Positions 5,012-31,588 of a stretch of DNA of 64,000 nt are shown here, one piece after another. Origin of the DNA: Obrimoposthia wandeli. Lineage: Eukaryota. The stretch is taken from NCBI GenBank assembly GCA_977020255.1, contig CDROCS010002188.1, positions 1 to 64,000 on the forward strand. Direction: 5' to 3'. The translations under genes were made by a program, and so were the position numbers. Under the pieces are notes generated by a model. That model saw nothing but the letters and a program-made list of their open reading frames with translations. It was not told the DNA's origin and did not search any database. Position 1 is the first letter of the stretch, and each line of letters starts with the position of its first letter.

Positions 5012-5012
5012 T

Positions 5013-6240: not shown

Positions 6241-6614
6241 TTTGCAAATATTGTTCCTTCAACATTCTTACGTTTGTTTATATTGATTTTTTGCTTCTTT
6301 TTACTTTTAAATCCACTACCTCCTTGGCTTTTATTTGATTTACGTTTTCTAATCAAATTAGCAACTCCAGGTAAAACATTATCAAGTTCATCAAGTGCAT
6401 GCTTCTTAAAAGTTGATATTAGTTTATTGTCCTTAGATGAAAGGTAGTCCTTTCCTAATTTTGATATAAATCGCCCGAGTCTCTTTAAAAGAGGAAAGGC
6501 AAATCTACCTAATGTTCTAAGCCAGCCAGATCCGTATTGTTTTCCAACAAAATACGGTAATTCTCCACCTTGTTGGCTTTGACTATAAGCTTCAATTATT
6601 GCTGGATTCGCCAT
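6237..6614 (-). CDS. Small basic core / membrane-active protein (adenovirus pX/pVI-like) of Polinton A
   Basis: Intact 125-aa ORF with QQGGELPYFVGKQYGSG, an amphipathic helix (WLRTLGRFAFPLLKRLGRF) and a Lys-rich tail; sits between minor and major capsid genes. Confidence 0.72.
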   Translation of the reverse strand: MANPAIIEAYSQSQQGGELPYFVGKQYGSGWLRTLGRFAFPLLKRLGRFISKLGKDYLSSKDNKLISTFKKHALDELDNVLPGVANLIRKRKSNKSQGGSGFKSKKKQKININKRKNVEGTIFAK

Positions 6615-7656
6615 TTTGTTTTCTTAAATGTATTGTTAAACTTGTCTTGGTCCCGTACGTGAAATCTATTAGTTGTCCGGAATCATCTCTAATATTTACT
6701 TCAATATTGTTTATAGAAAAGAGAGAAACTGAAAGATACATTGGTTGATCTATACACATGCCGACAGCGTCCCCATCTCTAGTTTCATTTTTAGATATCC
6801 ATATTGTTCTCAAAAGTGGAACTCGCTGTCCTCCTACAAGCGTTGGTTCTATTAAATTAGTATAAATATATAAATGATTAACAGCATTTAAATGTTTTGC
6901 CTTATTTTTAGCTTTTATGGTTTTTTATTATATGGGTTTCAAAGGTATTTCTGATTAAACCAAGGTTTTTAGCGAGTTTATCATCAAATAAAACTCGTAT
7001 TATATTGTTCTTTACTGTAAACGTTATTTTACCATTTTTTAATGTTACACATTTATCGAAATATTCACTACATTCCTTCTGTATTAATTTACAGAAATTC
7101 ACTTCACTATCTAATTTATAATCTTTTGAAAACATTTTCAGTTCCACTACATACTTTGGTCTCGTTTCAACTAAAAACACTTTTGTTACTCTATCAGGAA
7201 CATTTTTAAACGATTTAGATGAGGCTATATCAGATCTCTTCATACCTACTACATGTCCACTGTCAAAACCGAATTGAAGAGCTTCTCTATCAGATCCAAA
7301 TATAATTTGAATAGGTTTTAAAAATGTTTTAGTCTATTTTTAAATCTGACTTTGTTTTTTTCATATATTACTTTCACTTCTTTATCTATACAATTGTAAT
7401 AGAATTTTCCTTTACTATCAAACCCAATCACAACTTCAATTGATTTTTCATGATCAACTTCTTTTGTAAACGAAATATGGGAGTTTTTTCTGATAGTAAT
7501 TGGAGAATAATAAAAGGAAAATTCTGTTAAAGCCGCTTCCCATTCTCCTTGGAGATTTATAGGATTTTCCCAATCGATAATAAAGCTACTAGCGTAATTA
7601 TCTGGTTGAGTCTTCGGACATCCGTTACTAGGTAAAACCATATACATAGACTTCAT
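6600..7656 (-). pseudogene. Minor capsid (penton-like) protein of Polinton A, frameshifted
   Basis: N-terminus YMVLPSN..PDN..SSF...GEWEAALTEF; C-terminal block HLYIYTNLIEPTLVGGQRVPLLR..IEVNIRDDSGQLIDF..LTIHLRK; split over three ORFs. Confidence 0.85.
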
Positions 7657-8679
7657 ATTATATTAGATGCTGATATCCAAGTTGGATCTGAATAACCATT
7701 CCATTTAACATAGTATTGTTTATGTTTACCGGCACCCTTAGATTTTAATATTTTTTGAATACGGAAAACGCTAGGTTTATTTGATATTACTTGTAGTTCT
7801 TGCTCGTAAAATTTACCGTGAACGATATTATTGTCAGCATATTTAATAGTATACATTATTGGATTACTCTTTTGATCAATTTTACTTATACAAAATATTT
7901 CATCGCTCCAATTCTGATCAAAGTTTTTAATATATGGAGTAGAGCTAATTTTAGAAATTCGGACATATTCGTTTTTCTTATATTTAGCTTTTTTAATATT
8001 TTCTTTATTATTCCTGTTCATCTAAATATCCATAGAATTTTTATTAGTAACATCAAGAGGTCTCATTCCCTTGAGACCTCTATGTTCCGAGAGTGATTAT
8101 ATGCATGTATTATTTTAGGTAAAACTTGGATCCATTTTTTATTTCTTTCTTTTGTGAAATACCTTTTTATTCGATCTCTTAAAGTACGATTAAATCTTTC
8201 TACTTCTGCTGCTTTATACTGTGAAAACACAGAGTAGTGATTTATATTATTTTGTTTAAATAAAGATTGAACTTGCTTATTATAAAAATCTTTTCCTAAA
8301 TCCGTTTGCACATTTTGTGGAATGTCCTCTTTTAATATTTCTTTAATGGCTTCAAGCATAGCTATTGAAGACTTTGCTTTAACTGGAATTGCACGAACAA
8401 ACCTGCTAAATACATCAATACATGTTAAAATATATCGATATCCCTTATTAATGGAAGAATATATTGTTCTTTACTGTAAACGTTATTTTACCATTTTTTA
8501 ATGTTACACATTTATCGAAATATTCACTACATTCCTTCTGTATTAATTTACAGAAATTCACTTCACTATCTAATTTATAATCTTTTGAAAACATTTTCAG
8601 TTCCACTACATACTTTGGTCTCGTTTCAACTAAAAACACTTTTGTTACTCTATCAGGAACATTTTTAAACGATTTAGAT
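7001..8679. repeat. Identical 220-bp direct duplication (7001-7220 and 8460-8679)
   Basis: Base-by-base comparison showed no mismatch; the second copy caps the broken end of Polinton A. Confidence 0.9.
7653..8450 (-). pseudogene. Retroviral-type (rve) integrase with C-terminal chromodomain, 5'-truncated
   Basis: YILTCIDVFSRF, QTDLGKDF, VERFNRTL; C-terminal FRIQKILKSK..YYVKWNGY..TW; first catalytic Asp region missing; one frameshift and one stop between 8021 and 8063. Confidence 0.92.
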
Positions 8680-9842
8680 TTTTCTATAATGTAATCATAA
8701 TGTGATTCTTCACAATCATTTCACACATAATTCTAGTCAGAAAATGCATTATTATATCAACTGTATTTCATCACATAAAACTATACTTAACCTTTTTAAA
8801 ATCATATACAAACGTTAACTCTTATGACAATAAATATATATTTTATGTGGAGCTATAAATCACAATAATGCCCAATTCATCAAACACACACTCCGACATC
8901 GTCGATAAGAAACAAAGCACTGAAAAGCTTTCACAACATTCAAATCAAAATTTCAAATTATTGTGATTCAGCATTTGCTAATATCAAGGCAGCACTTAAT
9001 ACATTTATTTTATCACTTTCAAACACTTTCATATCACATATCTTAAACTAATATACTGACAAATTTAAATATCCATAATTAGAAATAATAAAAACAGAAA
9101 TAACAACATGGCGATAATATATTTAATATATCGCTAGAATCCAATAAATATATGCTTTATTACTTCAAAGTACTTTCAGTTTTTCTATTCAGGAGCTCTA
9201 TAAAAATAACTAACACTTTTCTTTGATTTGAATATAATTTTGACGGCTTTCTTCGAATTTTTGGCAAGCCACGTTTCTGATATATGTTTAAAAATTACTT
9301 TTAAATACCAGTATAACGTTTTAAAATTCATGAAATTTAATTTATTTAATCAAACTTGCGCTTCAAAGTATTAATGTCAACAATAAAACTTGTTTTTTGG
9401 CTATCTGCTTTAAACCTGGAAAATATTGAAAACAGTTGTTCATTAGATAAACTGGTATTAAGAAGGAAATCTCTGATAAAGAATGATCCCAAATGTTTTG
9501 ATACTCAAGTTTTACACCTGACCCACATGACTTAACTGTTAAGTCTTGCATTAATGCTATTGGGGATTATGACGCATGAGAATTTTGGCTTGTTTGAATA
9601 TTTTTTAGTGTACGTTGAAATATAAACTTTGAATAATCATGCGTCTTGTACTAGTATCAAATAATTTCTTGGAACAGTGTTGAAGCAGAATTCCCCTTTT
9701 TATATTACAGAATTCGTAGCAAAGTCGAACACTATCGTTAGCTTACTTTTATTGTGTCATAAAAATGGTCAAGATCCAAATTTTTAAAAATGACCCAAAT
9801 TATATAATTAGGAAGTGCTAATCAAACCAGTAAGATATTCAC

Positions 9843-10175
9843 CTGCATGGCCTCCATAGCCCGCAAGATAGTGGCCAGGCTCTGCACGATGTTGGCATAG
9901 ATGACAGGTATGAATTCCTTCTTCTCCAGTTCCTTATTGAAACCGCTGCCGTGGATGATGGTCATCTGCTTGAGCACCGTGGACTTGCCGCACTCACCGG
10001 CTCCCAACAGCAGCAGCTTGATCTCGCGCATCGCCTTCTCCTTGTCGGCACGCAGTTGGCGTTCGATCTCCTTGTTTTTGTTGCCCTGTACTGCAGTGCC
10101 GCCTACACCACCTTCCGACGTGTCCCCAGCACCACTCTGGCCGCTGCTTGTACTGTTGCTGTTAATGCATCCCAT
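9843..10175 (-). CDS. Heterotrimeric G protein alpha subunit (Gi/o-like), first coding exon (111 codons)
   Basis: MGC lipidation start, [20 protein letters not shown]-loop, [17 protein letters not shown]; donor CAG|GTGAAT at 9843/9842, phase 0. No downstream exon found in the window. Confidence 0.92.
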
Positions 10176-10879
10176 CCACGGTAAGAATATGCACTCAGAC
10201 ACAAACCCTCTTCTTATACTCGCCTTACCGGAGCATCATTGGCCGCCTGAGACCCGGCAATGCGAGACTGACGAGCAGGATATATCAGCTTCCGGCCACT
10301 GTTGACTGTGTGTGTGTTCTAATACTGTCCAGGAAACTGCCAGGCAGTATGTTAGTCAGCCATATACATTTTCTTTAGACTATTATGAATCACAAGCTGC
10401 ACCATATCTAGGACAAAATAGCTTTTAATGCAATACAAATTTTGCAGGTATCTAAACGATTATTAAGTTTAGTTAATTTACTACATTTGTAAAAAATATA
10501 TTTTCTTTCTGAAAATTTATATTTTAATAGGAAAACAATTTAAATTTTTAAAATTTTTTTTACAAATTTGAATGCAACTCGCTTGTTAATTCGAGTGCAC
10601 ATGTCAATCCTCGAAACTATTTACCGACAATATATTTAAAATATTAAATGTTTTATAATATATATGAATTCAAATATGAAATATTATTTATGTGTTTTTT
10701 ATGATTTTTTTGCATGAACATTTCAATTAAAAGTCAAATCACAAAATTAATTTTTTGATAATTTTTATCAAATTAAAATTTGATATTTTGAGGAATAAGA
10801 CTTCTTAGGAAGATCTTTGTAATTACGTATTTGATTGGATTTTCAAAAAAAAAAGATTTTAAGTGGAAAATTATGAACT

Positions 10880-11200
10880 CAAGAAAGTGAAAAAAATTGA
10901 ATGGAAAGCGTCTGGACAGAAAGAAACAGAGAAGTTGAGAAATATGCAAAAGCTACAAAATCTATTTTGGATTTAGTTGAGATGTATTTTAAACCAAAGC
11001 CGGTTGCTGTATCATTTGATGATATAGCCGTTCATTCTGTTTCTGATTCATATGCTTATATAGCTTATTTTTGTTAAAATGTTGTTCACAATGCTAAAGT
11101 TCTCCTCTACCAAGATTTTGGAATTGGTAAAGAATTTGCAAATATATCTTGGGGAGATTTGATGTTCAGCAATACCAAAAAAGCCATGGTTATGTACAGA
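10880..11200 (+). mobile_element. Highly degenerate Bel/Pao RNase H remnant
   Basis: Interrupted translation VHSVSDSYAYIAY..AKVSPLPR resembles the Pao LHxFxDAS..AY..AKxKVxP..IPRLEL block. Confidence 0.35.
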
Positions 11201-11772
11201 GCTGTGGCACTAGCACCAGGTTGTAAATCTATCATTTCATTTACCAGCATATTTTTGTTTTAAATTTGCCCTAATTGTAAATTTATTTTAGTAGTCATTT
11301 CACTACTAAAATAGAAAAATGCAGGTTTTCTGACAAGTCCGACAAGGGAACGAACGATAAGATAAAATGATTTTTTAAAATTTGTTTTGAACTCTTACAC
11401 TGGTAATCGTGTAACAAAAGCTTGATTCTTCGATATAGTCAACTCAATTCGATTTTCTGTTTCTAAGTTTGTCTCAGTTTCTAAAGAGCAGAATAAAGCA
11501 GATATGTATTGATTTTTAATTGCTACTTTAATTTTTTCATCAGTAACAAATTGACAGATTGGTAACCAACTTTAAAACACAACATTAAGTTATTTTAGCA
11601 ATGGGTATTGTAATATTTTGACATTTCTGAAAACAAATTATAATAAAATAATAGACGAAATAGCAAACGGAATATTATAAATTTTAAATATCATTAAAAA
11701 ACATCTTAGTAATCTTTGAAAATTAATCTATAAATCAGTAACTTAATAATTTTAAAAATGTATTAGATATAT

Positions 11773-12109
11773 CAGGGCGGATCTGAGGAAGGGTGCTCGA
11801 TGAGTGCCCCTAAATTATAGTATTTTAATTTTTGGAAGCGTTAGCATTCTTATACGTCAAACCAAATACACAGCTGTGACCACACTAAAGCTAGCGATCA
11901 GTTTCCCTGACCACCAACATCATCATTAATACGAATTTATTTTGTTATTGATTTCGCACCTACCTATCTGTTTTTCTGTGCTTATATGAAACAAAATGAT
12001 GATATAACTATCAACGCATTCTATATAGGTGACAAATAATTGTGGAACTCAATTTTTGTCCAGTTAGGCGCCTATCTTACAGTCAACTAAAAATCCAGGA
12101 TCCACCCTG
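11773..12109. mobile_element. Small hAT-like MITE (337 bp)
   Basis: Terminal inverted repeats CAGGGCGGATC / GATCCACCCTG; no clean 8-bp TSD. Confidence 0.45.
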
Positions 12110-14076
12110 TAAATGTAGATATAAAACCAAATTAAAAATTCAATTTATTTAGAAAAAATAACTAACTTATATCATGAAATATCGAAATTCCATTTCAAAG
12201 TCTCACAGTCTATTAATTAAATATATAGATCAGGTTTATAAAGAAAAATATAAATCATAATATTTCAATTGTATAAATCGATTTTTACTCACAAAAATAA
12301 TAATTAAGCTATTTTTTGATTCTTTATTTTGATTTTTAAATTCATAAATTCATTTCAAATATTTTTTTGGTATTTGAATTTTATAATTATTAAAATAATT
12401 ATAAGAAAACACATTGAATTAACTTAAAACGTCATAATATTTTTTTCTTTTAATTTAATTTATTCAGAAATTTCAAAATATTACAATAACTTTTGTTAAA
12501 ATAACATAATAAATTTGCAAATAGGATATTTATTACAAAAATAGTTAATTCTATATTTTTATGCATTTTAATTTATTTTTTCATCAAATTATTTTTTTCT
12601 TAATTCCAAACTTAAATGATAGATTCTTAAATATATTTAGAATGAATCGTTTGCCTAAAAGCATAATTATTTTGAGCTCGTACAAAAAATCCTTTGGATG
12701 TTTATTATTTTGCCATTCTCGTTCTTAAAGCAAAATTTTATAAGAAATAGAAGTTGGCAGTCTATCTTAAGGATAGTAAGGAAAGTATCTGCAAACATCA
12801 ATAACCTTTCACAGGTGAATGTGTAAGCCAAAGTCTTGTTTAGGGTGTAAATCTTGATAGGTTTCTTCGACGAGAATAATTTAAAACTAGAATGATACGC
12901 TTTTATTTTTTGTGTTTTATTTGTGTATTGTAGTAGCTAAAATAAATTTAAATGTTTCTTTCAAGTTTTTAAATAATTAGACTTGGAAATTATTAAAATA
13001 TCTAATTACAAACTTATCATTTTAAGTAGAAGAAAATTATTTCCCTTATTTAAAAACGAATACAAATTCTAAAAATGAACAGTAAAATAGAAATTACTTT
13101 AGGAAAGCTTTTTATAGGCATTATAATAATATGTAAACTGAAAATGATGTAAAATAATAAGATTTAAGAATTAATAATTTCTAAATAAATATTAGTTTCG
13201 GGAATTTCATTTTATTTTAATTATTTCTTTTATTTTTGGGTTTAAAAAATTTATCACATTTTATATATTTGGCATAAACGAATTAAGCCATATTAAACCT
13301 AAAAGTATTATCATTTTTCGAGTACTGATTGATAAATATAAGAGGATATCATACATATATTTTGTAGATAGTAATGATGAAATAATTCTTTAATCTCAGC
13401 TTAGCTTTGAAGGTTCTGTAGTTTTAAGTTGTGATATTAGTACCTAGACAAGACAGGCACATTTCAAAGAGGCATCTTGCTTGTTTTGATGCTAAACTGA
13501 AGCTCACGTTTCTATGACAACAAAGTGGTAAATGTATTTAATTTATAGGAACTGTTTTATATCGAATATAAAAAAGGGTGGTGAAATAGAAAAATTAAAC
13601 AGTTTTCAAATATCCAGAGAATTACCGCGAGTGCTTGATAGCCAAAAATATATTAAAATATTTAAATACACAATTTACTATTGAATTATAATATAAACAA
13701 TCGTATTCAGTAAGTGATAAATGTACAAATCATTAAAATTATGATTACTAGGTAAACTATTCGAAATGTTGTAAAATAAAGAAATAAGTTAAAAATATTC
13801 ATAGTTGAACAACTCATAACTGAAATTTACATTAGTTTAGTATTGTATTATATCAATCATATACCTATACGTTTTAAATAAAGTTACTTAAAAAAAACTA
13901 TTGATTTTAAGTATTTCATGTTAAACATTGGTTTTAAAGAAGAATTTAGCATTGTAATATCATAAATTTAATTTAATTTATCTACTTTTATTTATTTATT
14001 TATTATTTGATAATTAACTTTATATGGCTTTTAATTATTGAAATATCTACAAATTTTGTACAAGTACACAAGTTCG

Positions 14077-14665
14077 AATAACTTACAACATATTAAATTG
14101 AAAATATGCAAAAATATATCATGTTTACAAGTAAATTTATTGTACAAATCATTAATATTATGATTATTAAGTAAACTACTTGAAGATTTTGTTGAAAATT
14201 ATATTAAAGTAATAACTTACAACATATTAAAGTGAATATATGCATAAATATATTATGCATACAATTAAATTTATTGTACAAAACATTAAACTTATGATTA
14301 ATAAGTAAACTACTTGAATTTTTTGTTGAAAATTATATTAAAGTAATAACTTACAACATATTAAATTGAAAATATGCAAACAAAAATATTATGTTTACAA
14401 GTCAATTTATTGTACAAATCATTAATATTATGATTATTAAGTAAACTACTTGAAGTTTTTGTTGAAAATTATATTAAAGTAATAACTTACAATAAATTAA
14501 ATTGAAAATATATATGCAAAAAATATATTATGTTTACAAGTAAATTTATAGTAAACGACAGTAAAATATCAATTACTTTTTATGTAATGGAAAATTACAG
14601 TAATAATTTACAATATATTAAACTAAATATATGCAAAATTATATTATGTTTACAAGTCAATTTTC
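14077..14665. repeat. Tandem repeat, about 134-bp unit, about 4.5 copies
   Basis: AATAACTTACAA anchors at 14077, 14211, 14345, 14481 and degenerate at 14602. Confidence 0.9.
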
Positions 14666-15760
14666 GAATGTCTAGTAAACAAAACTAAATAACTCGAAAG
14701 AACTTTTACTATTTGAAAGAATACATTTAATAGTACTTTATATTTGAAATTTATATTATAGACAGTCGGTGGGGTACAGCTACTAACTTTATAATTAAAA
14801 TATTTTTAATAGTTTAAAAATAAAATCACTTGATAAAATACCACAATAATGTGGTAAAGAAATATTATATAACATATAAAAAGAATTTTTGAAGAAATAA
14901 TTGAATATTCATATTATATTGATAAGAGAATGGCAAAAATATCAAGTAATTAAAAAAAAATAAAATTGTTTGTTGAGTTAATTTACTAAATTTGTATATA
15001 AATATATTTTCGAATAGTTAAAAAGAGAAACGAATAATGATAATTTCAATTATATTTACGAATATAATTTTATAATCAAGTTATTTAAAAATAAAGAATT
15101 TAAATTTATCTAATTATTTTAAAATATTTCAATTAAGGAATGTTATTAAACGAGATATACATTTTAATTAATTAATTGCATGAGTATGTATGAAAGGTTA
15201 ACTTTAACATGGAGGTAAACTATGTGAAAATATGAAAGTTCACATCTTAATTATTATAACTTCATCAGGTTGTTACATCATCTTCATTGATTGATAGTAT
15301 TAATTTAATAATTAGCTAGTACTCACTTGCATTTTTAGATTCACTTGCAAAGATTCTTACTTGTATTTGCATTCATACTTGCATTCACTTACATTCATTC
15401 TAACTCTCATATATTTAAACTAGCATTCAAATTCATTAATATATTTACTAATTTTCATTCATAATTGACATTTGTACTTGCAGTCGTATTCTTTCTTACT
15501 TGTACTTGTAGATGCATTCAATCATACTTGCATTCATTTACATTCAATCTAACTGTAATTTATTCAAACTATCATTCAATTACATTCAAATACATTAATA
15601 TTTTACTAATTTTCATTCATACCTTCAAACTTAGTGTTGTTTTCTATTAATCTTGCATTAACTTAGTCGTTCTAACTTTTAACATACTTCAGTTTCCCTG
15701 ATTTTTTATAGTTGCTTACTTGTTATTAATCTAACTGTAACTTAACATAACTTTATTCAT

Positions 15761-16330
15761 ACGAAAACTCTATTTTAATTTACTTATAGTCTAAATTACA
15801 CTCGCATTCAATCAAACTATCGACACTCTTATTTATTTATTTTTTTCAATTACATTCACTTGCTAAGACTCTTGCTTGTATTTGCATTCACTTGCATTCA
15901 TACTTGCATTCATTTACATTCAATCTAACTATAATTTATTCAACGAAAACTCTATTTTAATTTACTTATAGTCTAAATTACACTCGAATTCAATCAAATT
16001 ATCGACACTCTTATTTTTCAATTACATTCACTTGCTAAGACTCTTGATTGTATTTGCATTCACTTGCATTCATACTTGCATTCATTTACATTCAATCTAA
16101 CTATAATTTATTCAACGAAAACTCTATTTTAATTTACTTATAGTCTAAATTACACTTGTATTCAATCAAACTATCGACACCCTCTTTTTTAAATTACATT
16201 CACTTGCTAAGACTCTTACTTGTATTGACATTCATACTAGCATTCACTTGCATTCATACTTGCATTCATTTGCATTCAATCTAACTCTCATTTATTCAAA
16301 CTATCATTCAAATATTCAAATAAATTAATA
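15761..16330. repeat. Tandem repeat, about 172-182-bp unit, about 3 copies, built from CTTGCATTCA sub-repeats
   Basis: ACGAAAACTCTATTTTAATTTACTTATAGTCTAAATTACAC recurs three times; degenerate precursors at 15300-15760; related to the 61650-63494 array. Confidence 0.88.
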
Positions 16331-16407
16331 TTTTACTAATTTTCATTCATAGCGTTAAACTTAGTGTTGTTGTTGTTTTGTTTTTTTTCCGTTGTAACTT
16401 AGTCGTT

Positions 16408-16509
16408 GAAAAGAAAAGAATGTATAAAGAATGGACTTTCTTACTTTGTAAATGTTATTCACTTAAGTTTGAAGATGATATTATGAAATTACATAATAAA
16501 TGTGTTTAA
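16408..16509 (+). pseudogene. polB: Short polB C-terminal remnant inside element X
   Basis: EKKRMYKEWTFLLCKCYSLKFEDD aligns with FLSCKCSPIKFEDD (17860 region) and FLRHKCYSL (polB A). Confidence 0.65.
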
Positions 16510-16629
16510 TTTTGTATTATTATATGACTTCTTTCTTATTTTATTTTTTTATTTTAATATATAATTTAAGTTATTTAAAGAAATTTTATCTTAATTCTAT
16601 AGATGTATAAGCCTAGGAAAAAATTTTGA

Positions 16630-17480
16630 TCTAAACTTTCACATAGAATAGTGTGTGTGTTAAAAACCACATTCCTTAACTGATAAGAGTGAACTTTAGA
16701 CTAAATTTTCACATAGAATAGTGTGTGTATGATTACGTAATACATTCCTTAACTTTTAAGAGTGAACTTTCACATAGAATAATTGATTGAATACTATATA
16801 ATTTCTTAATTTATGCCAAATCTGACCCTTAACTTGTGAACGACCATAAAATTTTTACATGAATAACCTCGTAATATGTTGACAAATACAACCATGTACT
16901 TGAAACTATGAAATTCCAACTTTTTTTAAACCCTTCATCTATGGACGACCATACATATATGGATGAATTCGTCTTCTAAAGATGATTACAACCATGTATT
17001 CAAACCTTGACATTTAAAACTAGATTTGGTCTATAGCTCGACCCTTTGATTTATGGACAGTCATACTTTATGGGTGACTTCGTCTTCTAAAGATGATTAC
17101 AACCATGTACTAAAACCTTGATATTTAAAAAAAAAATTTTAGCTCGACCCTTTGACCTATGGACGACCACAACCCTTTAGATGTGCCGCCCAACCATAGT
17201 TGACCTTAATTATACTTTCAAAGTTTCAAGTCAAAACTGAGTCTGACCCTTTGATTTATGGACGACCACAACCCTTTAGATGTGATGGCCAACCAAAGTT
17301 GACCTTAATTATACCTTCAAAGTTTCAAGTCAAAACTGACCTTGACCCTTTGATTTTTGGACGACCATGACCCTTTAGATATGTTGGTTGACCATAGACG
17401 GTCATGACCATACCTTAAAACCTTCAAGTCAAAACTGACCTTGACCCTTTGAATTATGGACGACTACAACCCTTTAGTGG
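16630..17480. repeat. Polinton subterminal arm: about 70-bp repeats (x3) grading into 99-bp repeats (x4-5)
   Basis: TTCACATAGAATA at 16638/16708/16769; GACCCTTTGA at 17040/17146/17245/17344/17443. Confidence 0.88.
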
Positions 17481-17488
17481 TATACCAA

Positions 17489-17673
17489 AGAAGGTTGGAG
17501 ACTAAGCCACTTAACCCTTCCCCCTCCCCCCTATCATAAACTTTCTGAGCCAGACCCTTATGGTGTGGCAAGACACCCTTATGGTGTGACACCCTTATGT
17601 TGAAAATCCTTTAAAATTGTGTGCGCACAAGGGGGGGCGGTCAAGTGGCTTAGACTCCATCCTTCTACCTACT
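17489..17673. repeat. Terminal inverted repeat of element X with an internal 28-bp inverted copy of the terminal motif
   Basis: 17489-17516 is the reverse complement of 17639-17666 with 3 mismatches; terminus reads AGTAGGTAG from outside in. Confidence 0.85.
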
Positions 17674-17962
17674 TTGGAGATACTGATTCATTTTTTTTAG
17701 AATGCAAAGGTGTTAATTAAGAAATCAGTTGTTACCTCAAATGATTGCAGATGGAGCATTATTTACGTCAAATTATAATGTGAATGCTCAATTATATTCT
17801 AATGAATTTAATAGTAAAATAGGATTATTTAAAGATGAATCGAAAGAAAGAATGGATTTCTTATCTTGTAAATGTTCCCCAATTAAGTTTGAAGATGACT
17901 TTGAAAATAATAAAGCAAAATGAGTAAATCTTAAACGATCAACAGTTGTACACCAAACATAT
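17674..17962 (+). pseudogene. polB: 3' half of a split polB (element P)
   Basis: Starts at the TSD and reads G-D-T-D-S-F-F-L-E-C-K, later IGLFKDES and KCSPIKFEDD..KAK; truncated near 17962. Confidence 0.9.
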
Positions 17963-18700
17963 TCTGGGAAAACTTTTATCTAAATTTTCACATAGCATAG
18001 TGTGTATTATTACATAATACATTCCTTACGTGATAAGAGTGAAGTTTGACCTAAATTTTCACATAGAATAGTGTGTGTATTATTACGTACTACATTCCTT
18101 AACTGATAAGAGGGAAATTTGATTAAATTTTCACATAGAATAATTGATTGATTACTATAGGATTCCTTAACTTATGCCAAATCTAAACATTAACTTGTAA
18201 ACGACCATAAAATTTTTACATGATTAAACTCATAATATGTTGAAAATCACAACCATGTACTAAAAACTTTGAAATTCCAACATTTTTTAACCCTTTCTTT
18301 TATTGTCAACCATAACTTTATGGATGAATTCGCCTTCTAAAGATGATTCCAACCATTTACTAAAACCTTGATATTTTAAACTTGATTTTGTCTTTAGCCC
18401 GACCCCTTGATTTATGGACGACCATAACCCTTTAGATGTGTTGATCAACCATATTAAACCACAATTATACTTTCAAACCTTCAAGTCAAAACTGATCCCG
18501 ACCCTTTCATCTATGGGCGACCACAACCCTTTAGATGTGATGGCCAGCCATAGTAAACCCCAATTATACCTTCAAACCTTCAAGTCAAAACTGACCCCGA
18601 CCCTTTCATATATGGACGACCACAACCCCTGGGGTATGTTGGCCGACCATAGAGGATCACAACCATACCTTCAAACCTTCATAACCATATGGATATGAGC
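17963..18700. repeat. Second copy of the subterminal arm (70-bp and 99-bp repeats), terminus missing
   Basis: Colinear with 16600-17450; TTCACATAG at 17987/18058/18130; 99-bp units at 18410-18690. Confidence 0.88.
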
Positions 18701-18823
18701 ACATTCAATTTTTCACATAAATAGCTTTGTACCAATTTCATCCTTCTTGTAACCATACAATCGAATTGTTACAGTTCATTGCTTCTTTTTTGGAAACGCA
18801 TCAACATCTATTTATCTTCTATA

Positions 18824-19162
18824 TTAATCTAAAAATGCTGTATCAGCTCTGCAGAAATAAAATTCGTCATTGTTGAATGTAAAACTTGGAACTGCCTTTT
18901 TAACTTTCTGTTTAAGATATTGAAAGTCTGGGTTTTGAATATTTGATAGATAATAGTGATACTTTCTTTTTTCAATTGTAACATGATTTACTAAAGCAAT
19001 CAGTTGAGCCTTCTTCAAGAATCTGAATTTGTATTTGAAGTATTGTTTCACTTCTTCATATATATTCTTATCTGAATCTTCAAACATTTCTAAACCTTTA
19101 TCATCACTCAATATCTGTTGGCCATCTTCCATCACTGATAATTGTTTTTGAAATGAATGCAT
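18824..19162 (-). other. Orphan 112-aa ORF at the rearrangement junction, function unknown
   Basis: ORF track only; no motif recognised. Confidence 0.25.
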
Positions 19163-19376
19163 TTATAATGATTTGTTCTCCAATGGCTAATTTTTTTATA
19201 CTAATTTGTAACAAAGACATGAATCATCATGAATTAATATAACTACAATATTGAATTTGATTGAACTAAATCAATATTTAAAATTCAAATTGATTGTAAG
19301 AAATATATTAGATTTCAATCATCCAATTATAATAGGTTTGCAAGATATTTACAAGAAATGTGCAATAAAAAAGCAA

Positions 19377-19486
19377 GTGTGGCAAGACACCCTTATGGTG
19401 TGACACCCTTATGTTGAAAATCCTTTAACATTGTGTGCGCACAAGGGGTGGGGTCAAGTGGCTTAGACTCCATCCTTCTACCTACT
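19377..19486. repeat. Terminal 110 bp of the other TIR of element X
   Basis: Nearly identical (2-3 differences) to 17563-17673 in the same orientation; followed by CTCCAA, the reverse complement of the TSD. Confidence 0.92.
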
Positions 19487-20890
19487 CTCCAACAACTATA
19501 TTAATTGAACAATTAAATAGTGATCTATAATTTTGTAAATCATGATACTGAAGATTATACATTCCTAATTTGCTAATGTCTAGTACAGCTTGACCTATAT
19601 AGTTTGGACGATCGAGACAAATAAAATCTTTTCTTAATAAAACAGCTATTAAATTAACATGAATTTCAATTGATCGTTGAAACATAGGTTTGTTAGTATA
19701 TGTGATTACTTTTGTAGAACTAGTGCAGATGCGAAGATTCAACCGTTTCTTAACATTTTCAACGGTATTTCAATACAAACTAACATTTTTAAGTTTATAA
19801 AAAAAAATTGTTACATTTATTCGTTGCTTGATATAATATTTCTGAATTATATTCTATATATTCTGCGAATATCTTAGCCCGAGAGAAATATACTACTCGA
19901 TGAATAATTGTTATCACTGCTCCTAAATAAACATACATCTGCAATAGTCTCCAATGAATAACGTAATGACGTTTTGGCGAATGTGTCATTAAAAGTTTTT
20001 AATTTTTTTTACCAGGTGAACATTTCTTTTCTGGAGCTATATGTAGATCGTCTAAAAAGTAATGAAGGTTTTCTGGTCTACCTCCATAACATAACCATAT
20101 TCAATATGTTCCATGTTCACATTTTCATTTCATGTAATATTTCGTTTAATTTATATCATCAAGAATCCATTCAAAATCTCCTTTTGGTAAAAGTTGATCA
20201 AGAGCCCATCCATATAAATTATTAACATCTGTATATAAAAGACTCGTTTCTTCATCAGCAACTACATGATGCTTATTGAAAAATGTCATTCTTCCACGTA
20301 TACCCGAAGAAATTATGTTGTACATTTCAGGATCCAGCATCAGTTCAACTTTATGTTTTAACATTTTTAGAGCACTTGCCCAGCTCAACCCAGGAATGCT
20401 AAAAAAGTTAAGTGGTTCTAAACCATCTTCGCTGAGAGCTTTTCTTCTGAATGTTTGAAACACGTCAGCTAATAAATATACGTCAGTCTTTAAGTAAACT
20501 AATATATAATCCATCATATTTCTACAATTTGTTATTCTCCAAACATCTTGTGCATTTTGATATTCAGTGTCTTTGATTTTATCATTCCATTTTACTGATA
20601 AACTTAACTTATTCTGGAGGTCATTTAATGATGTAGCAAAATCATATGGGATTATTCCTTTACCATCAATGAGTTTAGATGGATAAACTGATCTTGTTAA
20701 TGGAATACTTGGTAATTAACTGGCTAATTTCTCCAAAGATGATTGTAAAAATAACAAAGAATCTATAAATCTCAGAGTTATTTGACCTAATCTTACAATC
20801 ATTGCTTGAAATATTTCTGTCGATTGAGGTAAATATGATGTAAATCATAACCTCTGAGATAATGAAACACAATGACAGTGGGATCAATTT
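19487..20890 (-). pseudogene. polB: 5' part of the split polB (element P)
   Basis: VFHYLRGYDLHHI, RFIDS, KTDVYLLADVF, YTDVNNLYGWA, FYKLKN, PNYIGQAVLDISK..MY; ends IVVG at the TSD; several frameshifts. Confidence 0.93.
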
Positions 20891-21259
20891 CCATGGCCAG
20901 GATCTCCTTGCTGCTACTGCCGAAGTTGCTGGACGAACAGCTTCTATGTTTTGCCTGAGAGTACAGTCTCCCCAATTCTCCATCGAATCCTGACTTGTCA
21001 GGTCAATATATTGGGATCTCTGTACCCCGCCTCTCACGTCCATTGGTTCTTCTCTTGGAGTTGAGCTGGCCAATGGGGCTTCTTCTTCCAGCAGGTCCGC
21101 TCTTGCTGCTGCTTCTCCTTCGCTCACCACCGATGAGTCTTGACTATGTAATTCAATGTATTGCGACGGTGGTGGCGTTAGCTGCTGCACTGGATAGAGA
21201 TCCCCATAAAGTTGAACTTCCGTCTCTTCGTCTAGATCAACGTTGTTGTAGAATGGCAT
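20890..21259 (-). CDS. Acidic, predicted disordered ORF upstream of polB (separate gene or polB N-terminus)
   Basis: ATG at 21259 (MPFYNN); internal repeat SQYIELHSQDS / SQYIDLTSQDS; GC-rich; joins polB sequence out of frame near 20890. Confidence 0.5.
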
Positions 21260-21289
21260 TGTTGATTTATGAAAAATAATGAACGGAGG

Positions 21290-21345
21290 TGTCTTTTTAT
21301 ACACGAACATCTTACTAACCCTCTTTTATTGTCCAATCAGAGCCT
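21290..21345 (-). promoter_or_regulatory. Candidate Pol II promoter (CCAAT box plus TATAAAA)
   Basis: Minus strand CTGATTGGAC near 21335 and GTATAAAAAG near 21300, about 40 nt before the ATG at 21259. Confidence 0.45.
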
Positions 21346-21470
21346 ATTATTTATATAATTTATTTTTGTAATGTTTTTCGTTCCTGGAGATCAAGAATGA
21401 AGCCCGCCCGAAGGGGCGGGTTGTGTATGTTAGGGGCTGGAGTGTGACACGGGTCGTCTACATGTGTAGT

Positions 21471-21870
21471 CACCAACACCCACCGACTTTCACCCACCAC
21501 CCAACACCCACCACCTACCACCCACCACCCAACACCCAACATCCAAAACCCAACACCCACCGACTTTCACCCATCTCCCAACGACTTTCACCCAACACCC
21601 AACACCCACCGACTTACACCCACCACCCAACACCTACCTACTTACACCCATCACCCAACGACTTACACCCATCACCCAACACCCACCGACTTTTACCCAC
21701 CACCAAACACCCACGGACTTTCACCCACCACCCACACCCAACGAATTTCACCCAACACCCACCGACTTTCACCCACCACCCAACACCCACCGACTTTCAC
21801 CCACCACCCAACGACTTACACCCATCACCCAACACCCATCGACTTTCACTCAACACCCACCGACTTTCAT
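21471..21870. repeat. C/A-rich composite minisatellite (ACCCAACACCCACCGACTTTC-type units)
   Basis: Direct reading; source of the His/Pro/Thr ORF at 21423-21971. Confidence 0.92.
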
Positions 21871-21879
21871 CCAAGGACA

Positions 21880-21923
21880 GAGGGGGGAGGGGGTGTGGAT
21901 TAGACCGGACACATCCACCTACT
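21880..21923. repeat. Second type of Polinton terminus
   Basis: Reverse complement AGTAGGTGGATGTGTCCGGTCTAATCCACACCCCC resembles but differs from the X terminus AGTAGGTAGAAGGATGGAGTCTAAGCCAC. Confidence 0.7.
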
Positions 21924-22014
21924 GTGTTGAACAAAATGGAAAGGGTCTTAAACGTAAAAGAAATAATTTAAATAGTATAAACAAACGTCTTAAAGGTACT
22001 ATTTTTCAAAATGA
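21924..22014 (+). pseudogene. C-terminal remnant of the pX-like gene of element M
   Basis: VEQNGKGLKRKRNNLNSINKRLKGTIFQ aligns with the Polinton A protein tail QGGSGFKSKKK..NKRKNVEGTIFAK; cut at the 21923 terminus. Confidence 0.7.
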
Positions 22015-23212
22015 CTAGTGTAAATTCTGAATTGTGTATTTTCGATAGACCATTGCAACATGTAGTGATTGAAAATTCAAGTTTTGAAGAAATATTTCCA
22101 ATCAATTCAATTACTGGTGGAAATTTAAATGTCATATAATTTAATATTCATGCATCTGAAGAAGATTATCTATATTGGAATGATACTTTGCTAAATATTA
22201 AATTAAAAGTTGTAAATTAAGATGGTACTGATTTAATGAAAGATGTAACTCCAGAGAATTACGTTTCAAACTTTGTTTTGAGATGTTATTCTAACACTTA
22301 ATAATGTTAAGATTGAAGGAGGTAATAGATCATATACTCATAAGGCTATTTTCGATACTCTTTTGAATTTTAGTAGTGATACCAAGTAACCTTGAATTCT
22401 CCGGGTATGATGATCATGCAGAAAGTCGTAAACAATGGATTAGTGAATCTAAAATATTTTCATTGTGTAATTCAATTAGATTCTTTGATCAACCAAAATA
22501 TTTAATTCCAGGAATTAATGTTCATTTGAGATTTATGAGAAATCAGCATAATTTTTCGCTCTACTCAGAAACTTCAAAACCAATTATTCAAATTCTAGAT
22601 GCCAGATTGTATGTTAGACGAGTAAAAGTTGATTCTTCAATAATATTTGGACATCAGTTAGGTTTGCAAAGTCAGAATGCAGTTTATCCAATTAGAAAAA
22701 CTCAGTTAGTATCATATTCAATTCCTCAGGGTTCTTTAGAAATTAGTAAAGATCAAATATTCGGAGACTTTCGTTTACCAAAGCTCATTTTGATTGCTTT
22801 CAAAGCTACACCTCAGGGTGGTAATGAATACAAAGTTACATATTCTAGGTTCAATACATTTAATGTTTCAACAATATCATTAGCTAGAAATACAGAATAT
22901 CGAGAGACTTATAATCTAAATAATTTAAAAAATTCATTAGCATATATGCAGTCAATTATTCGAAACATGAATATTTTAGATAAAAATTTGAATAATGGTA
23001 TCAGATTTTCTGATTTTAAATCAAAAAGTTCAATTTTCACTTTTCTATTAGCACCAGATTTTGATATAAACACTACTCAAGTACCGAAAACTGGCAATTT
23101 AAGGCTTGAAATTAGATTTAATTCTCCTTTGACTGCTCCAACAAGTGTTTTGATATACGGAATATTTGATTCCGAAATTCAGATTACGAAAAATAAAACT
23201 GTGATTGTATGA
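22011..23212 (+). pseudogene. Major capsid protein of element M
   Basis: MTSVNSELCIFDRPLQ.. to ..YGIFDSEIQITKNKTVIV; clearly homologous to the Polinton A capsid; stops and frameshifts in the first 370 nt. Confidence 0.9.
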
Positions 23213-23585
23213 AGTAAGTATATTGTATATTATTTTCTTTATTTAAATTAGTACTTTAGAAATTTATAAATCCGGAAAAATATTATTGAATAACAAATTT
23301 AATGGAGTATATTCATTGGTTAAAATTTCATCATTAAAACCCAGGGGCTACTTTATCAATACTCATACTTCAAATCTACCAGGTGAACATTGGATAGCAA
23401 TATTCGTTGACAGGTTCGAGATTCGAGTGTTTGATTCTTTTAGATTCTATTATCCTCCAAAGTTGGTGTCTACACTTGAAAAAGAAAACATTCCAATCTA
23501 CTATAATCGAATTAAATGTCAGAATCCATTAACTAAAATCTGCGGACCTTTGAGTTTTTTATGGTTGAAACTTCAATACAAATAA
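23209..23585 (+). CDS. Adenain-like protease of element M, with a 38-nt intron (23214-23251)
   Basis: Spliced MN-TLEIYKSGKILLNNKFNGVY..PGEHW..VFDS..QNPLTKICG; open to the stop at 23585. Confidence 0.88.
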
Positions 23586-23629
23586 CTTTCAAGTATAAAC
23601 AAATATATCTTTGAGTATTTCATTTTTTT

Positions 23630-24095
23630 CAAAAGGCTTTTATTGATTTAGAGTGTTTTATTAATAATAATGGAGAATATATTCTTAAAGAATTATGTAT
23701 AATGTATCATTTATGTGAATGATATGACTTGTCCATTTCATTACGTATTTAAAAATCAAATACCGTGGAATAGTTTATCATTTTCAGTTAAAAGAAAAAA
23801 TCTATATTTGATAAATCGTCATCATCATCAGTTATCCTGGTTTGAAGGTGAAAGCTCTGATATTCATATTGATGATCAAGAAACAATATTCTATGTTATG
23901 GATTCTATTGATGGAAAGAAGATTAATTTAGTAAAACGAATGTTTCCAAATTTAAGAATTGTAAATTATAATAAAAGTTTCAAAAATTTAAAGTAAATGC
24001 CAAAAAATATTCGATGTCCATTTAGAAAACACGGAAAATATTGTGTTTATTTAAAATGTTTTTCTATATGTATTGATTATGTAAATTGTATATAA
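23630..24095 (+). pseudogene. Small Polinton accessory protein with D-x-E-x-F..KEL and C-terminal C..H..C motifs
   Basis: AFIDLECFINNNGEYILKELC / HYVFKNQIPW / HHQLSWFEG / CPFRKHGKYC; one frameshift and one stop. Confidence 0.55.
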
Positions 24096-24119
24096 ATAAA
24101 TTTATTAATGATATTTTAT

Positions 24120-24325
24120 TTTATTTTTAAATATATAATTTAAGTTATTTAAATTAATTTTACCATAATCCTTTAGATGCGTAAGGCTGGGAAAACTTTG
24201 ATCTAAATTTTAATTAAGTGATAAGAGTGAATTTTGACCTAAATTTTCACATAGAATAATTGATTGATTACTATAGGATTCCTTAACTTATGCCAAATCT
24301 AACCCTTAACTTGCAAACTACCATA
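24120..24325. repeat. Third, truncated copy of the subterminal arm
   Basis: ATATAATTTAAGTTATTTAAA..CTGGGAAAACTTTGATCTAAA..TTCACATAGAATAATTGATTGA matches 16560-16850 and 17965-18205. Confidence 0.85.
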
Positions 24326-24769
24326 ATGTGAGCAGTCTTAGAACAATTTATATAAGGGAATTCGTCAAATTATATTCGTACTTTCAATTTAAAATTATTT
24401 TCATTAAAATAAAATAATTGACCGATTGGTAATTACATATTTTACTATTTTTACATTATTAGTTTTAATTTTGTCAATATAGTTTTAGTACAAAATTGAA
24501 TATTTGAATAAACATACAGTTGAACTTTTAGTGCAACTGTAGCTTTTTATATTTAACAATATGTTCTTTACTCCAAATAATGGTAACATCTAAATTCCAA
24601 ATTAAGAAGATAAAATGTATGTAGTTTATTTTAAATCTCATCCCAAATATTTGTTTTTGCAATTTAAGGTTAAATCCTATTAATAATAAATTTAACTATC
24701 TAATATGACAATTTTTTAAATTTGACTTTAAAACATATTTACTTCTTAGATTTGATTATTAGTTCTCGT

Positions 24770-27206: not shown

Positions 27207-28427
27207 GTAATTTATTTTCTTATCCCCTTTAAACCAGACGGAAGAAATGACAAGAAAACGTTTAGTAAGTTTAATCTAGTTCCAGAATCATCGTAGTTGT
27301 TTGTGCAGTTAACTGGATTAATACTACTCACTATTTTCTCAAGTGTTCTCTTCATACTGCCGATATAAACTGTTTTTAATCCTTGTTACTTTCCATGACT
27401 TTAGATAATGAATATTAATAACAAATGAATTTACAAAACAAAGAAATCAGATGATGGCAAGTCTTTAGATCGTGCTGTTAAAACCATTGACATACATACC
27501 ACAAAATCGTTGGCCTAAAACAATTCTTGTAAGATGAGCTTGTACTCCATTTGGCTAAAACACTATTTTTCGGGCATGTAATAGCGTTAAATAATGACGC
27601 TTAAATATGTCAAAGTAGTTTTCACCATTGATGTTAGTGTCAAAAAAGAATGGGTCATAAATATGGTTGCTGAACAAACCAATCAACACATTGACTTTTA
27701 GACTTGAATGGCTCTTTTGGATGGTTTCGTGTGGTTATTCAAACCCGCAAATTCTGTGATTATGTCTATTTACTGAGCCATCCAGCTTAAATGTTGATTC
27801 GTTAGAAGAAAAAAAGATTTCGAAGGAAGTTATCATAATTTCCATATTTTTCAACAAATTTCCACAGAGACTGACTCTCAAAGCTAAATTATCTCCATGA
27901 AGCCGCTGTGTCAACTGTATCTTGAAGGGATTAAACTTAGCTTATCTCGCACAACTTTATAGATTGTCATATAGTAAATATTTTTTCCTTGGCAGCTTGC
28001 CTGAGTGAAGGTTAACTAAAGAAATTGATGCCCCATACACACTTCCGGTTTCTTTAAATTTATAATAAATCTTCCTTACAGTGTTTTCATAACAGATGCA
28101 TTTATAATGTATATTTTTGCAATTCCCGTCACTCTAATGTGACTGACTCAAATTTGGCCATAAGTAACGCTGATTTCTGTCCATTTCAAACTTAAGTAAA
28201 ACAAATAATTTCACATATTGATTTAAATAAACCTTTATTATTAATTACGACTTAAATTTTGTAATTCGAAATAATATTTGACTCTTTCAGATATATAATC
28301 GATTATTTCAAAATTTAAATATTTTGGGCTACATAACAGGGTGACTGAAACCCCATAAAATACACCCGAGAGGCACGTTTCCGGTACAAATGAGAGAGTA
28401 GGGTTAAACAGCTGGCCTATTCTCAAG

Positions 28428-28646
28428 ATTGACAGTGTGGATGTGAAGATCCCGGGATCGGCGAAGCTTGTGGGCAGGGGCAGTGGCGTTTTGGTGCGCT
28501 GGAGCAACTCGATTAGCTGGATCCTGAACACCAACGTGCTACCAGCCCTCTCCAGCACCTACGGCCACGATCTGCGGCGTCTTCTACAGAGGAGGGTTGA
28601 CCTGTTCATGGAATTCCTGGTGAATTTCATGAAGATGTGGCACTGA
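28428..28646 (+). CDS. Terminal exon 3 of the same secreted protein
   Basis: Acceptor CCTATTCTCAAG| in phase 0; IDSVDVKIPGSAKLVGRGSG then a long amphipathic helix to the stop; spliced product 255 aa. Confidence 0.65.
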   Translation: MDSVDVKIPGSAKLVGRGSGVLVRWSNSISWILNTNVLPALSSTYGHDLRRLLQRRVDLFMEFLVNFMKMWH

Positions 28647-29059
28647 TCAGTTCTCATCTCAGGCACTGGACTTCATTATGAACTGATATCTGATCATTAA
28701 CTTTTACCTTTACTTATATTTACGCCATTTTAAAAAATAAATGTTTATTAAACAATTATGCAAAAAAGTTAAATCTTCCGTCTATAATTCTTCAATGAAT
28801 TGTGTCATTATTTGACACAATTTTTTTTCAGCCCAGATTATTTTTTTTACAAATGATGTTAAAACATTAATTCACAATAATTCACAAAATAAAATAGGTT
28901 TTATTTCATCATTATTATTCATCGTTAAATCATAGAAGTTTCAAAATTAGGTACGACGCCAACGAGCTAAGAAGTTATTGATTTCATCTATTATGAAAGA
29001 CCAATAAGATGAAAATCATTAAACAACTTCATTACTCATATATATAGGTGCCATAATAT

Positions 29060-31588
29060 TTTTTTTTCATTAACCTCTGGGCTATCGCTAATCTACTTCC
29101 TTGCAATCATCCCTGCATTCCTCCATATTTCCACCAACTGATCTTTTAGCTTATCTACTTCGGTTACTGAAGACACTGAATCTAGACTAACGTCCATGTA
29201 GGTTGATTGCAAAATTGTCTCACTGGCTCTTGGATTCTTCACTTTAAAAGTTTCTGCGTTTACTCTGGTTACCAGTTGAGCCAAGAATGGTGAGGCATTT
29301 ATTCCAAAGACTACTCTCTGAAATTCATACATTTCCTTCTGATTCTCTCTATTTCTCCATAAGAACCTTATCCATGGCCGGTCTTCCTTACATACCTTGA
29401 TCTGTAAGTACATCTCTACTACTTCTTTGATACATCGGTGTAAATCCAGGTGGTCAGCTCCAATCAGTATATCAACCTTCTTCTGGGACTCTGAATTCGG
29501 AAATGCAATACCTGCTAAATGTTGCCATTAAGATGATTCTTCAGACCAGTTTATCACCTCCAAGCTGTCAGCAATTTCCTCCAGGTTCAACATCTTTACT
29601 ACTCGTTTAAGTTTCCCATTTCTGCTGCTAATTTCGGCTTCTATCTCTTCACAATCTAACTTACGCACCTCACCATCAATAACTTCCACAGGCAGTTCTA
29701 TTTTTGTACCTCGTGCTCTGAAAGTGCAAGCTATTTCCTTACTTATATATGATAGGGTACTAGCGTCATCTAATAGTGCGTTCGCGCATGTTTCAATTCC
29801 TTTTCTCCTTATTATCACTGACACTGTCCTTAGCACTATGAATGCGCGTGCCTTCTGTTGATTGTCCTTTATTACCATTGTTTGACCTACTATTCTTTCC
29901 CCCCTTTGTCGTGCAGAAGCCAGTGATGCTTTTCGTGGCATCCATATGTCTGACATAACTGGTTAAATCTACACTTCTCTACTGTGTGATTACTACGTCA
30001 GCAATTCTTGCATATTTTCTCTCTATCGACCCACTTCTGCCTCGCTGCCACTGTCAACTCTCTAACTTGCTCACATTAATCAGTATAGTGGTTGGCTTTA
30101 CATTTTGCACATTCGGCCTATCTTTTGATTCTTGTAGATTGGTTTATACCGTTTTCCTGTTCCCTTTACTATTCGCAAAAAAAAGTGTGATGGTAATGAT
30201 GTGTATCATTGTTCCATCTCCAGTGTTTTTCAACGTAGATGGTTCGTATTCTTTGATTCTCACGACTTCCATTAACCTCATTGGCTCTTCTTAGATTCTC
30301 ACTTTCTTGCTGGGCCCATATCTTTACGTACTTATATTTTCTTTATCCCTGTTTTGTTGGACACACTTCGTCCAATCCTTCAGTTCTAACATTGGCAACT
30401 TTCTCAAAAGCTTGTTGAACAGAAACCCATTTCCAAGATCAACTTTGTTGCCTTCTTCTCTTGCTCTGATTACTATCTTGTTTGTTAATAGTACAAGTGC
30501 GTCCAGATCTTAGTCTTCTCTCCATCTTATCACTCTAAACATTTCAACTTCGTCCACCAAACCTCTATTATTTCTTTCCCTTCCTCCGTATCTTTCTTTT
30601 AGCAATCTTAAAGTTTCGTCATAACTTGCATCCATGAACCCAAGGTTTTGAATTAACCTGTAAGGTTCACGCCTCACATACTCCATCAGTTGCAGCATTT
30701 TTTTCTTGCTTTGACGCATTGGTCTGATCGATGACAGTATCAAATATTGCCCTCCAACTTTCGTATTCCTTATAGTCCCCGAATAAATATGAAATCCTAA
30801 TCTTTTTTAGCCCCTTCCATACATTTTGGCCTGACTTATTTTCCCTGAGTTCATCTCTCATATTCCTTGATTCTTTTGTTGTCCTATTTTCAAATTCCTT
30901 TTCTGCTTTTGCTATTTCACTCTTTATTTCCTTTATCTTGAGTTGGTCTTTGTTTTTCACCGCCTGCTCCAACTCTATGTTCTTCTGGTCACTGAATCTT
31001 CGTACGATATCCCTATACCTCTTTCTCTTGTCTGAATCCTCTTCCGTATTCCGTGCTTCCGTCCATTCATCCCCAGCCAATATTATATCCAATCTCGTAA
31101 CCCTCTCTGCTCTTCCATTGTTTTCCTCCCCCATTCTGCTACCATGTTTGAGGGAATAACATCATTTGATGTTATAGGGATTTCTGATAACATTGTTACA
31201 ATTGTTACAAAATGGTAAGTTGAAGGTTGAGAGGATAAATAGTGACTGGAAAATTGTCGAGATGATGATGAAGGTTGAGGCACCGGAATATTTGAGGGAA
31301 TAACTTCATAAATAAAAACATAAATTCAAAATCACAATTTTTTATTGATTTACTTTAAACTTTTAAACTATAAACTTTATTCTTAACAACATTAACTTTT
31401 AAGTTACCAACTACCTTGGTAAAACACCTGGTAAATTCATGTTAAAAACCTTCATAAAAAAGGACCTTCATCACTACTTCTACTACCCACCTATCATCGT
31501 CATCTACTATTTAATTTATTTTATTAATAATATTTTAATGTATTTAATTCCATTCTATTTAATTCTATTCCATTACCATTCTTCAACA
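29060..31588 (-). mobile_element. Bel/Pao LTR retrotransposon, internally deleted and 3'-truncated
   Basis: Gag (GDYKEYESWRAIF..LLKERYG), protease ALLDDAST, RT MYLQI..FLW..RVVFGINASPF..YMDV; about the first half of RT and everything after RT is missing. Confidence 0.9.
31145..31588 (-). repeat. 5' LTR (444 bp, TG..CA) followed by tRNAi-Met primer binding site
   Basis: Minus strand starts TGTTGAAG, ends ..AAACA, then TGGTAGCAGA (31144-31135) immediately before the gag ATG. Confidence 0.75.

Follow-up and report, generated by a model that had tools for sequence, protein, structure and literature searches.

A non-coding Polinton derivative nested in the probably broken polymerase gene of an older relative, with a likely inversion between their ends, in Obrimoposthia wandeli

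At the C. elegans eri-6/7 locus, Polinton terminal inverted repeats (TIRs) occur as direct repeats around an inverted part of a gene, and ectopic recombination between inverted sequences is proposed in the available part of the report (PMC11414722). Criteria for ectopic recombination as against hybrid-element insertion, and a link between long TIRs and breaks, are given in the available part of PMC2775673. We analysed a 64,000-nucleotide stretch of the Obrimoposthia wandeli assembly GCA_977020255.1 (contig CDROCS010002188.1, positions 1 to 64,000, forward strand), hereafter the window, in which a Polinton polymerase gene, polB, is divided between opposite strands beside two Polinton termini that face the same way. 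We refer to the element inserted into polB as X, to the Polinton that carries polB as Y, and to a second Polinton family as A. The features of the locus, in window coordinates, are as follows.

13677..17673, plus strand: X remnant, comprising part of the central spacer and one arm (satellite repeats, subterminal region, terminus)
17489..17525, minus strand: inner degenerate inverted copy of the terminus (84% inverted match), predicted to form a hairpin with 17630-17666
17563..17673, plus strand: TIR1, terminus of X (the part common to TIR2), off the majority of 14 close copies at 1 of 110 columns
17674..17679, plus strand: target-site duplication (TSD) copy 1, TTGGAG, a rare allele (1 of 36 uninterrupted copies)
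17676..17963, plus strand: 3′ part of the Y protein-primed polymerase gene (pPolB) from motif C, with a stop and gaps, by sequence comparison with other loci
17964..18686, plus strand: Y right subterminal region, of an older subfamily, about 79% identical to that of X
18687..19378, minus strand: filler, 6 untemplated bases and an internal gene piece of about 686 bp from Polinton family A
19377..19486, plus strand: TIR2, outer 110 bp of the other end of X, now a direct repeat of TIR1
19487..19492, minus strand: TSD copy 2, TTGGAG on this strand
19488..20873, minus strand: 5′ part of Y pPolB (PF03175), with several frame-breaking indels and the start deleted
20874..21923, plus strand: end of an A-family Polinton inserted in Y at 21923/21924, by colinearity with the Y copy L106
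21924..24326, plus strand: Y capsid module (major-capsid-like and protease-like) and a stub of the other subterminal region, terminus lost, 92% identical to L106

The termini ending ...ACCTACT at 17673 and 19486 both lie on the plus strand and are followed by TTGGAG and CTCCAA, respectively. They have 110-111 bp in common and are identical at 108 of 111 positions, in keeping with the original prediction of near-identical, same-direction termini with reverse-complement 6-mers. The further claim that polB is divided at GDTDS, with its halves on opposite strands, is borne out as well: ...IVVG closes the minus-strand piece, and GDTDSFF opens the plus-strand piece, which meets a stop 14 codons in. 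The insertion site is the Gly codon just 5′ of two Asp codons, in what we take to be motif C of family B polymerases. By Pfam, the 5′ piece matches PF03175 (DNA_pol_B_2) at 20149-20715 with an E-value of 6.4e-11, and the ORF nearest motif C has no match on its own. The 5′ piece lies directly upstream of the 3′ piece, on the same strand, in 29 of 29 other loci retrieved with the 3′ piece, so the pairing in the window is more than chance. Among 36 distinct uninterrupted copies, the 6-mer at the site reads CCGGAG in 28, CAGGAG in 4, CTGGAG in 3 and TTGGAG in 1. Both polB pieces in the window carry this last, rare allele; they therefore come from one copy, and the duplication is a true TSD. Across the terminal family to which X and Y belong, 14 of 17 end pairs (8/9 and 6/8) have direct 6-bp TSDs.

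An assembly misjoin is most improbable because both breakpoints are unique junctions, host to spacer at 13677 and filler to tip at 19377; a flip made in assembly would require inverted repeats in both places. The region is dense in repeats, as a misjoin would have it, and none of the short contigs listed for 17400-21400, from four runs of one sample, crosses 17673 or 19486. Against this, a 93-bp contig, from a sample that may be the one assembled, spans 18686-18693 without differences, the two TSD copies are exact duplicates of a rare allele, and an 11-kb long-armed X element in the same contig was assembled with its TSD. Within the assembly we found no second copy of either host flank and no empty or uninverted allele.

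Natural copies of Y, such as L105 and L106, are about 11 kb long, have termini of the same family as X and are colinear with the window over 19493-24326. L106 carries genes for a pPolB, an A32-like ATPase and an rve integrase, capsid-like and protease-like ORFs, and a TATA-binding-protein (TBP)-like gene. The protein-primed family B polymerase expected of a Polinton is present in Y, PF03175 being matched in L106 (E 3.7e-08) as in the window, and at the family level so are the integrase (PF00665, E 4.7e-10) and the packaging ATPase (PF04665, E 1.3e-06) of L106. The protease-like ORF of L106, a candidate for the adenovirus-like protease, reached PF00770 at E 0.034, under the cut-off. For the capsid-like ORFs, the top Atlas clusters stood at 0.98 and 0.97, PF21738 being carried by 17% and 10% of their members, and recognition was 1983, below 2300; a double jelly-roll capsid identity is a lead from these comparisons. 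Long TIRs with 6-bp TSDs likewise occur at the level of the Y family, in the 14 of 17 pairs above and in at least 26 perfect, inward-facing direct-TSD pairs, counted by eye among 120 listed ends with a full 6-mer (20 of 20 and 100 of 164 from two 6-mer classes). The TSD of Y itself is unreadable because both Y tips are lost. The TBP-like gene of the Y family lies at L106:1643-2191 (PF00352, E 8.5e-09).

In the window, the rve integrase and A32-like ATPase of Y are deleted and are known from the colinear L106. About 5 kb of Y middle genes is absent, together with the rest of the A-family insert. The surviving A-family terminus at 21923/21924 stands in a Y gene just upstream of the capsid gene, with the flank GTGTTG and its other end lost, and brings the nested insertions in this copy of Y to two. 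The view that one Polinton had here knocked out another is not upheld, as polB was probably dead before X arrived. Sequence comparison points this way: Y is about 3-fold more diverged than X (see below), a frame-breaking gap in the 3′ piece is common to 3 of 29 other loci and was therefore likely inherited from a source element, and in the 5′ piece there are five indels of non-triplet length, every one of them seen in comparison with 60% or more of the 36 copies.

The inserted element had been described as a Polinton that entered another. X does belong to the same TIR family as Y, but it is a non-coding derivative of that family, and its full-length relatives are often near-palindromic. The longest stop-free frame in the X remnant is 61 aa, and those in three full copies are 138, 65 and 94 aa, L184 being left out of the count as mis-bounded. 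X does not encode the core genes of an autonomous Polinton; it has the family TIRs and 6-bp TSD, without genes, of a non-autonomous derivative. Seven other X copies match the window from exactly 13677, and this left break falls in the X central spacer. The arms of the full copy L186 are 95-97% identical, and among seven X-type loci inverted arms exceed 1 kb in four and measure 457 bp in one, with none longer than 400 bp in two. Exact copies of the X/Y terminus number 11,588 in a genome of 1.35 Gb.

A neighbouring X element, which extends from window position 60920 to C2188:72030, is flanked by TACATA as an ordinary direct duplication. This element (60920-64000 in the window), L186 and C1470:73289-80325 are X elements without genes, 7-11 kb long, whose inverted arms extend over several kb and are 93-99% identical. 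They keep intact direct 6-bp TSDs and are Foldback-like Polinton derivatives. A literature search conducted mostly without subscription papers found neither a Polinton nested in a Polinton nor palindromic non-autonomous Polintons, an absence that we do not claim. As DNA, 17474-17673 at the end of the X remnant has a predicted fold of -39.3 kcal/mol (z -6.3 against 100 shuffles). In the copy L257 (C1470:80134-80325), a copy of the outer terminus and about 80 bp of its flank stands, inverted, in place of the inner degenerate terminus, an arrangement consistent with template switching in the terminal hairpin.

Both termini at the locus had been attributed to the inserted element, and tests of TIR subfamily and age place both with the younger X. 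TIR2 is 97-99% identical to X-type termini. All 32 other termini that are at least 96% identical to TIR2, a biased sample since most were retrieved with TIR1, score as well or better against the X subterminal region as against that of Y (three have almost no subterminal region and about four are near ties). No terminus so close to TIR2 occurs among the 29 closest relatives of the Y subterminal tip, the best reaching 87%. Measured from column majorities, X diverges at 29 of 1,957 positions (1.5%) and Y at 191 of 3,798 (5.0%; Fisher p 1e-12), and letters seen in no other copy make up 0.5% of X and 2.8% of Y, giving Y a divergence about 3-fold (majority-based) to 5-fold (private letters) that of X. 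Each tip differs from the majority at 1 of 110 positions. The age test on TIR2 alone returned P 0.023 under the majority-based rate of Y and 0.18 under its private rate, and because the outcome depends on the rate, the subfamily test weighs more. By these comparisons both tips are those of X, and self-integration by Y is accordingly disfavoured. An attack by Y on its own polB, through self-integration or reversed-ends transposition with its own end or ends, would suit both the TIR family common to X and Y and a geometry that fits an inversion-type autointegrant. We regard it as very unlikely, since TIR2 is not Y-type, TIR1 is attached to the X satellite arm and not to the Y capsid module, and both tips seem younger than Y. 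Autointegration by Y was rejected on the ground that the joined ends are not those of the element hit.

Moving 3′ from the plus-strand polB piece, the Y right subterminal region runs to 18686 and is followed by the 6 untemplated bases, the A-family piece of about 686 bp and TIR2. The best genomic match of the filler is 88%, and its junctions, with a 2-bp overlap on one side and the untemplated bases on the other, look like end-joining in their sequence. Leaving aside about 690 bp of filler, the 110-bp tip of X is no more than 21 bp away from the homologous position in the right end of Y itself: the same two points are 21-23 bp apart in 16 of 29 relatives, 12 lacking the exact marker 10-mer and one having it at 125 bp. 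A 37-bp block at the breakpoint is common to X and Y-type ends, with at least 34 positions identical in 13 of the 29 relatives. The original prediction had a free break 110 bp inside a TIR; instead, the break lines up in register with the right end of Y itself and is marked by filler DNA. Its broader outline, an insertion at motif C with a 6-bp TSD followed by inversion with deletion, agrees with the junctions and the subfamily tests. The breakpoint has the chimeric element copy looked for in ectopic recombination, Y-type subterminal DNA and then an in-register X-type tip, with filler between. As to TSD exchange, that of X is flipped, and the tip and TSD of Y are absent from the window.

With the junctions, one rare allele in both TSD copies, TIRs of a single family in X and Y, their difference in age, the X tip in register behind the Y subterminal region, and the filler as observations, we assign a probability of roughly 0.6 to a nested insertion of X into the likely broken polB of Y, followed by an inversion between the far end of X and the right end of Y. 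The young, non-coding X would have inserted, with a 6-bp duplication, into polB of an older Y of the same TIR family, and its far end and Y's own right end would then have formed inverted repeats. Exchange or break repair between these similar, oppositely oriented ends would invert the stretch between them, making the X ends direct repeats and flipping one TSD. About 135 bp common to both ends, with the 37-bp block near-identical, may have guided the join, the break perhaps being supplied by the long arms or terminal hairpin of X. The filler would have been captured during repair, and the second arm of X and the tip of Y deleted at or after the inversion; we infer the order of these events. 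As counterpoints, the filler sits exactly at the would-be crossover, where a clean chimeric junction is unreadable, and the register is possibly due to chance, which we estimate at 3-4% (42 of about 1,200 bp). The expected second product, a Y tip with Y's TSD to the left of X, is absent from the window, and the 120 listed ends include no second case of the window's architecture.

The filler could also be read as a leftover neighbour. After the insertion of X, two unrelated breaks, one in X and one beside the Y end in old A-family DNA, might have been end-joined without guidance by homology. Such a course is doubtful, though it has several features of the breakpoint on its side: both sides of the filler resemble end-joining, the A piece is old by its best match of 88%, a similar non-homologous deletion junction is found at 20873, and the inner limit of TIR2 falls in the loop of the predicted X terminal hairpin. 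On this reading, however, chance would have to place the two breaks no more than 21 bp from homologous positions, at the 3-4% given above, and there is no A-family DNA at the left junction, 8680-13640 being unmatched by the retrieved A copies.

A hybrid-element insertion would produce the inversion and the flipped TSD at once. Here X would lie just left of Y and integrase would join X ends of sister chromatids into polB, with deletions between the resulting direct repeats coming later. The geometry of ends and TSD is thereby explained in a single step, the two ends are near-identical and of X type, the register would also follow from a later deletion between direct repeats, and the outcome closely resembles that of ectopic recombination according to the available part of PMC2775673. 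We nonetheless think it improbable. X must begin adjoining Y, a literature probe under the word autointegration only found no report of such a reaction for Polintons, and ordinary insertions prevail, with 26 perfect direct-TSD pairs among the 120 listed ends. None of the three same-direction candidates inspected is a simple inversion. These reverse-complement candidates were rejected as a local fold-back duplication in C1470, where about 80 bp of the flank is copied in inverted form, as 99% identical segmental inverted duplications in C2696, and as unrelated flanks in C2744. If true, the one-step course would be direct sequence evidence of aberrant transposition by Polintons, as in cut-and-paste transposons, and would bear on whether the Polinton integrase acts on chromosomal ends.

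The idea that motif C is a preferred target falls away. Gap patterns reaching about 28 bp from the polB site, which would catch any terminus that ends in ACCTACT, found, genome-wide, this locus, itself chosen for its position, and one other, L254. With 11,588 ends the chance expectation per pattern is 0.31, and it rises to 0.66 if all families together are assumed to have 25,000, given 2,543 genomic copies of the exact 18-mer beside the site. L254 (C1559:263930) is an independent A-family insertion in a Y polB, 8 bp from the site, of which one side survives. Of the 11,588 ends, three are followed by TTGGAG and five by CTCCAA; six of these lie elsewhere in the genome, none of them in polB motif C, and a hot spot there was rejected. 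The repeated insertions at one site that mark a site-specific element are not found, other nested insertions lying in the integrase, the capsid module and other polB positions. Polinton DNA directly adjoins the outer side of 2 of 30 ends taken without selection and of 6 of 28 ends of X type, which we give as counts and not as a nesting preference. The TSDs of the family show a base preference in raw counts, with 164 ends of the form S-T-N-N-A-S against 20 of R-C-N-N-G-Y, and TTGGAG falls in the common T..A class. In TSDs with G at position 2 and C at position 5, the central step is almost never purine-pyrimidine.

The surroundings hold further elements. A truncated A-family Polinton occupies 1762-8688, with polB on the plus strand and protease-like, capsid-like and integrase genes on the minus strand; at its broken end, 8460-8688 is a 98% copy of 7001-7229. 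Minus-strand positions 9822-10235 presumably contain the first coding exon of a host G-protein alpha subunit, with a GAGECGKS motif, and minus-strand 28241-31161 has broken ORFs that by eye resemble gag-pol of a BEL/Pao-type LTR retrotransposon. Segmental tandem or inverted duplications with family ends or polB copies occur at C2696:227-274 kb, where the units are 99% identical, C868:962-973 kb and C117:97-187 kb. A third terminal type, ending ...ACATCTACCTACT, is found at L103, L104, L044, L182 and L185 and suggests at least one more Polinton family in the genome.

The event is real and of a known kind, an ordinary genomic scar and not targeted sabotage, and the locus is a dead fossil. For a genome in which Polinton copies run to thousands, it is a clear illustration of nesting and of TIR-associated inversion, with little wider import. 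A more useful lead is the existence of multi-kb, gene-less, near-palindromic Polinton derivatives that are still inserting with 6-bp TSDs; these may act as fragile sites.

Like the Polintons/Mavericks described in the available parts of PMC8097293, PMC6431247 and PMC3014272, the X/Y family has pPolB, rve integrase, A32-like ATPase, protease-like and capsid-like genes, long TIRs starting AGT and a 6-bp TSD; compared with what these sources describe, it is compact (about 11 kb), numbers thousands of copies, carries a TBP-like gene and includes multi-kb non-coding, near-palindromic derivatives such as X. Polinton-like viruses, in the accessible portion of PMC12220804, also have genes of integrated elements interrupted by younger ones, but the invaders there are retrotransposons in protist viruses, and X is related to the element that it entered. 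The window locus appears to work like the eri-6/7 and Galileo cases, as far as can be read with one breakpoint lost and filler at the other. With eri-6/7, as far as the available text of PMC11414722 goes, it has in common several Polinton insertions at one locus, an inverted gene part and TIRs as direct repeats. Unlike that host gene, which is rescued by trans-splicing, the gene here is a dead Polinton polB with no function indicated, and one partner is the invaded element's own end. Galileo/Foldback of Drosophila buzzatii, in the available part of PMC2775673, is a cut-and-paste element of the P superfamily involved in a chromosome-scale inversion with both breakpoints intact, whereas the inverted stretch in the window is now about 5.7 kb, with one breakpoint deleted and filler at the other. 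Both have long, internally repetitive TIRs, TSDs that are reverse-complemented after the inversion and a chimeric copy at a breakpoint, with breaks proposed at stem-loops.
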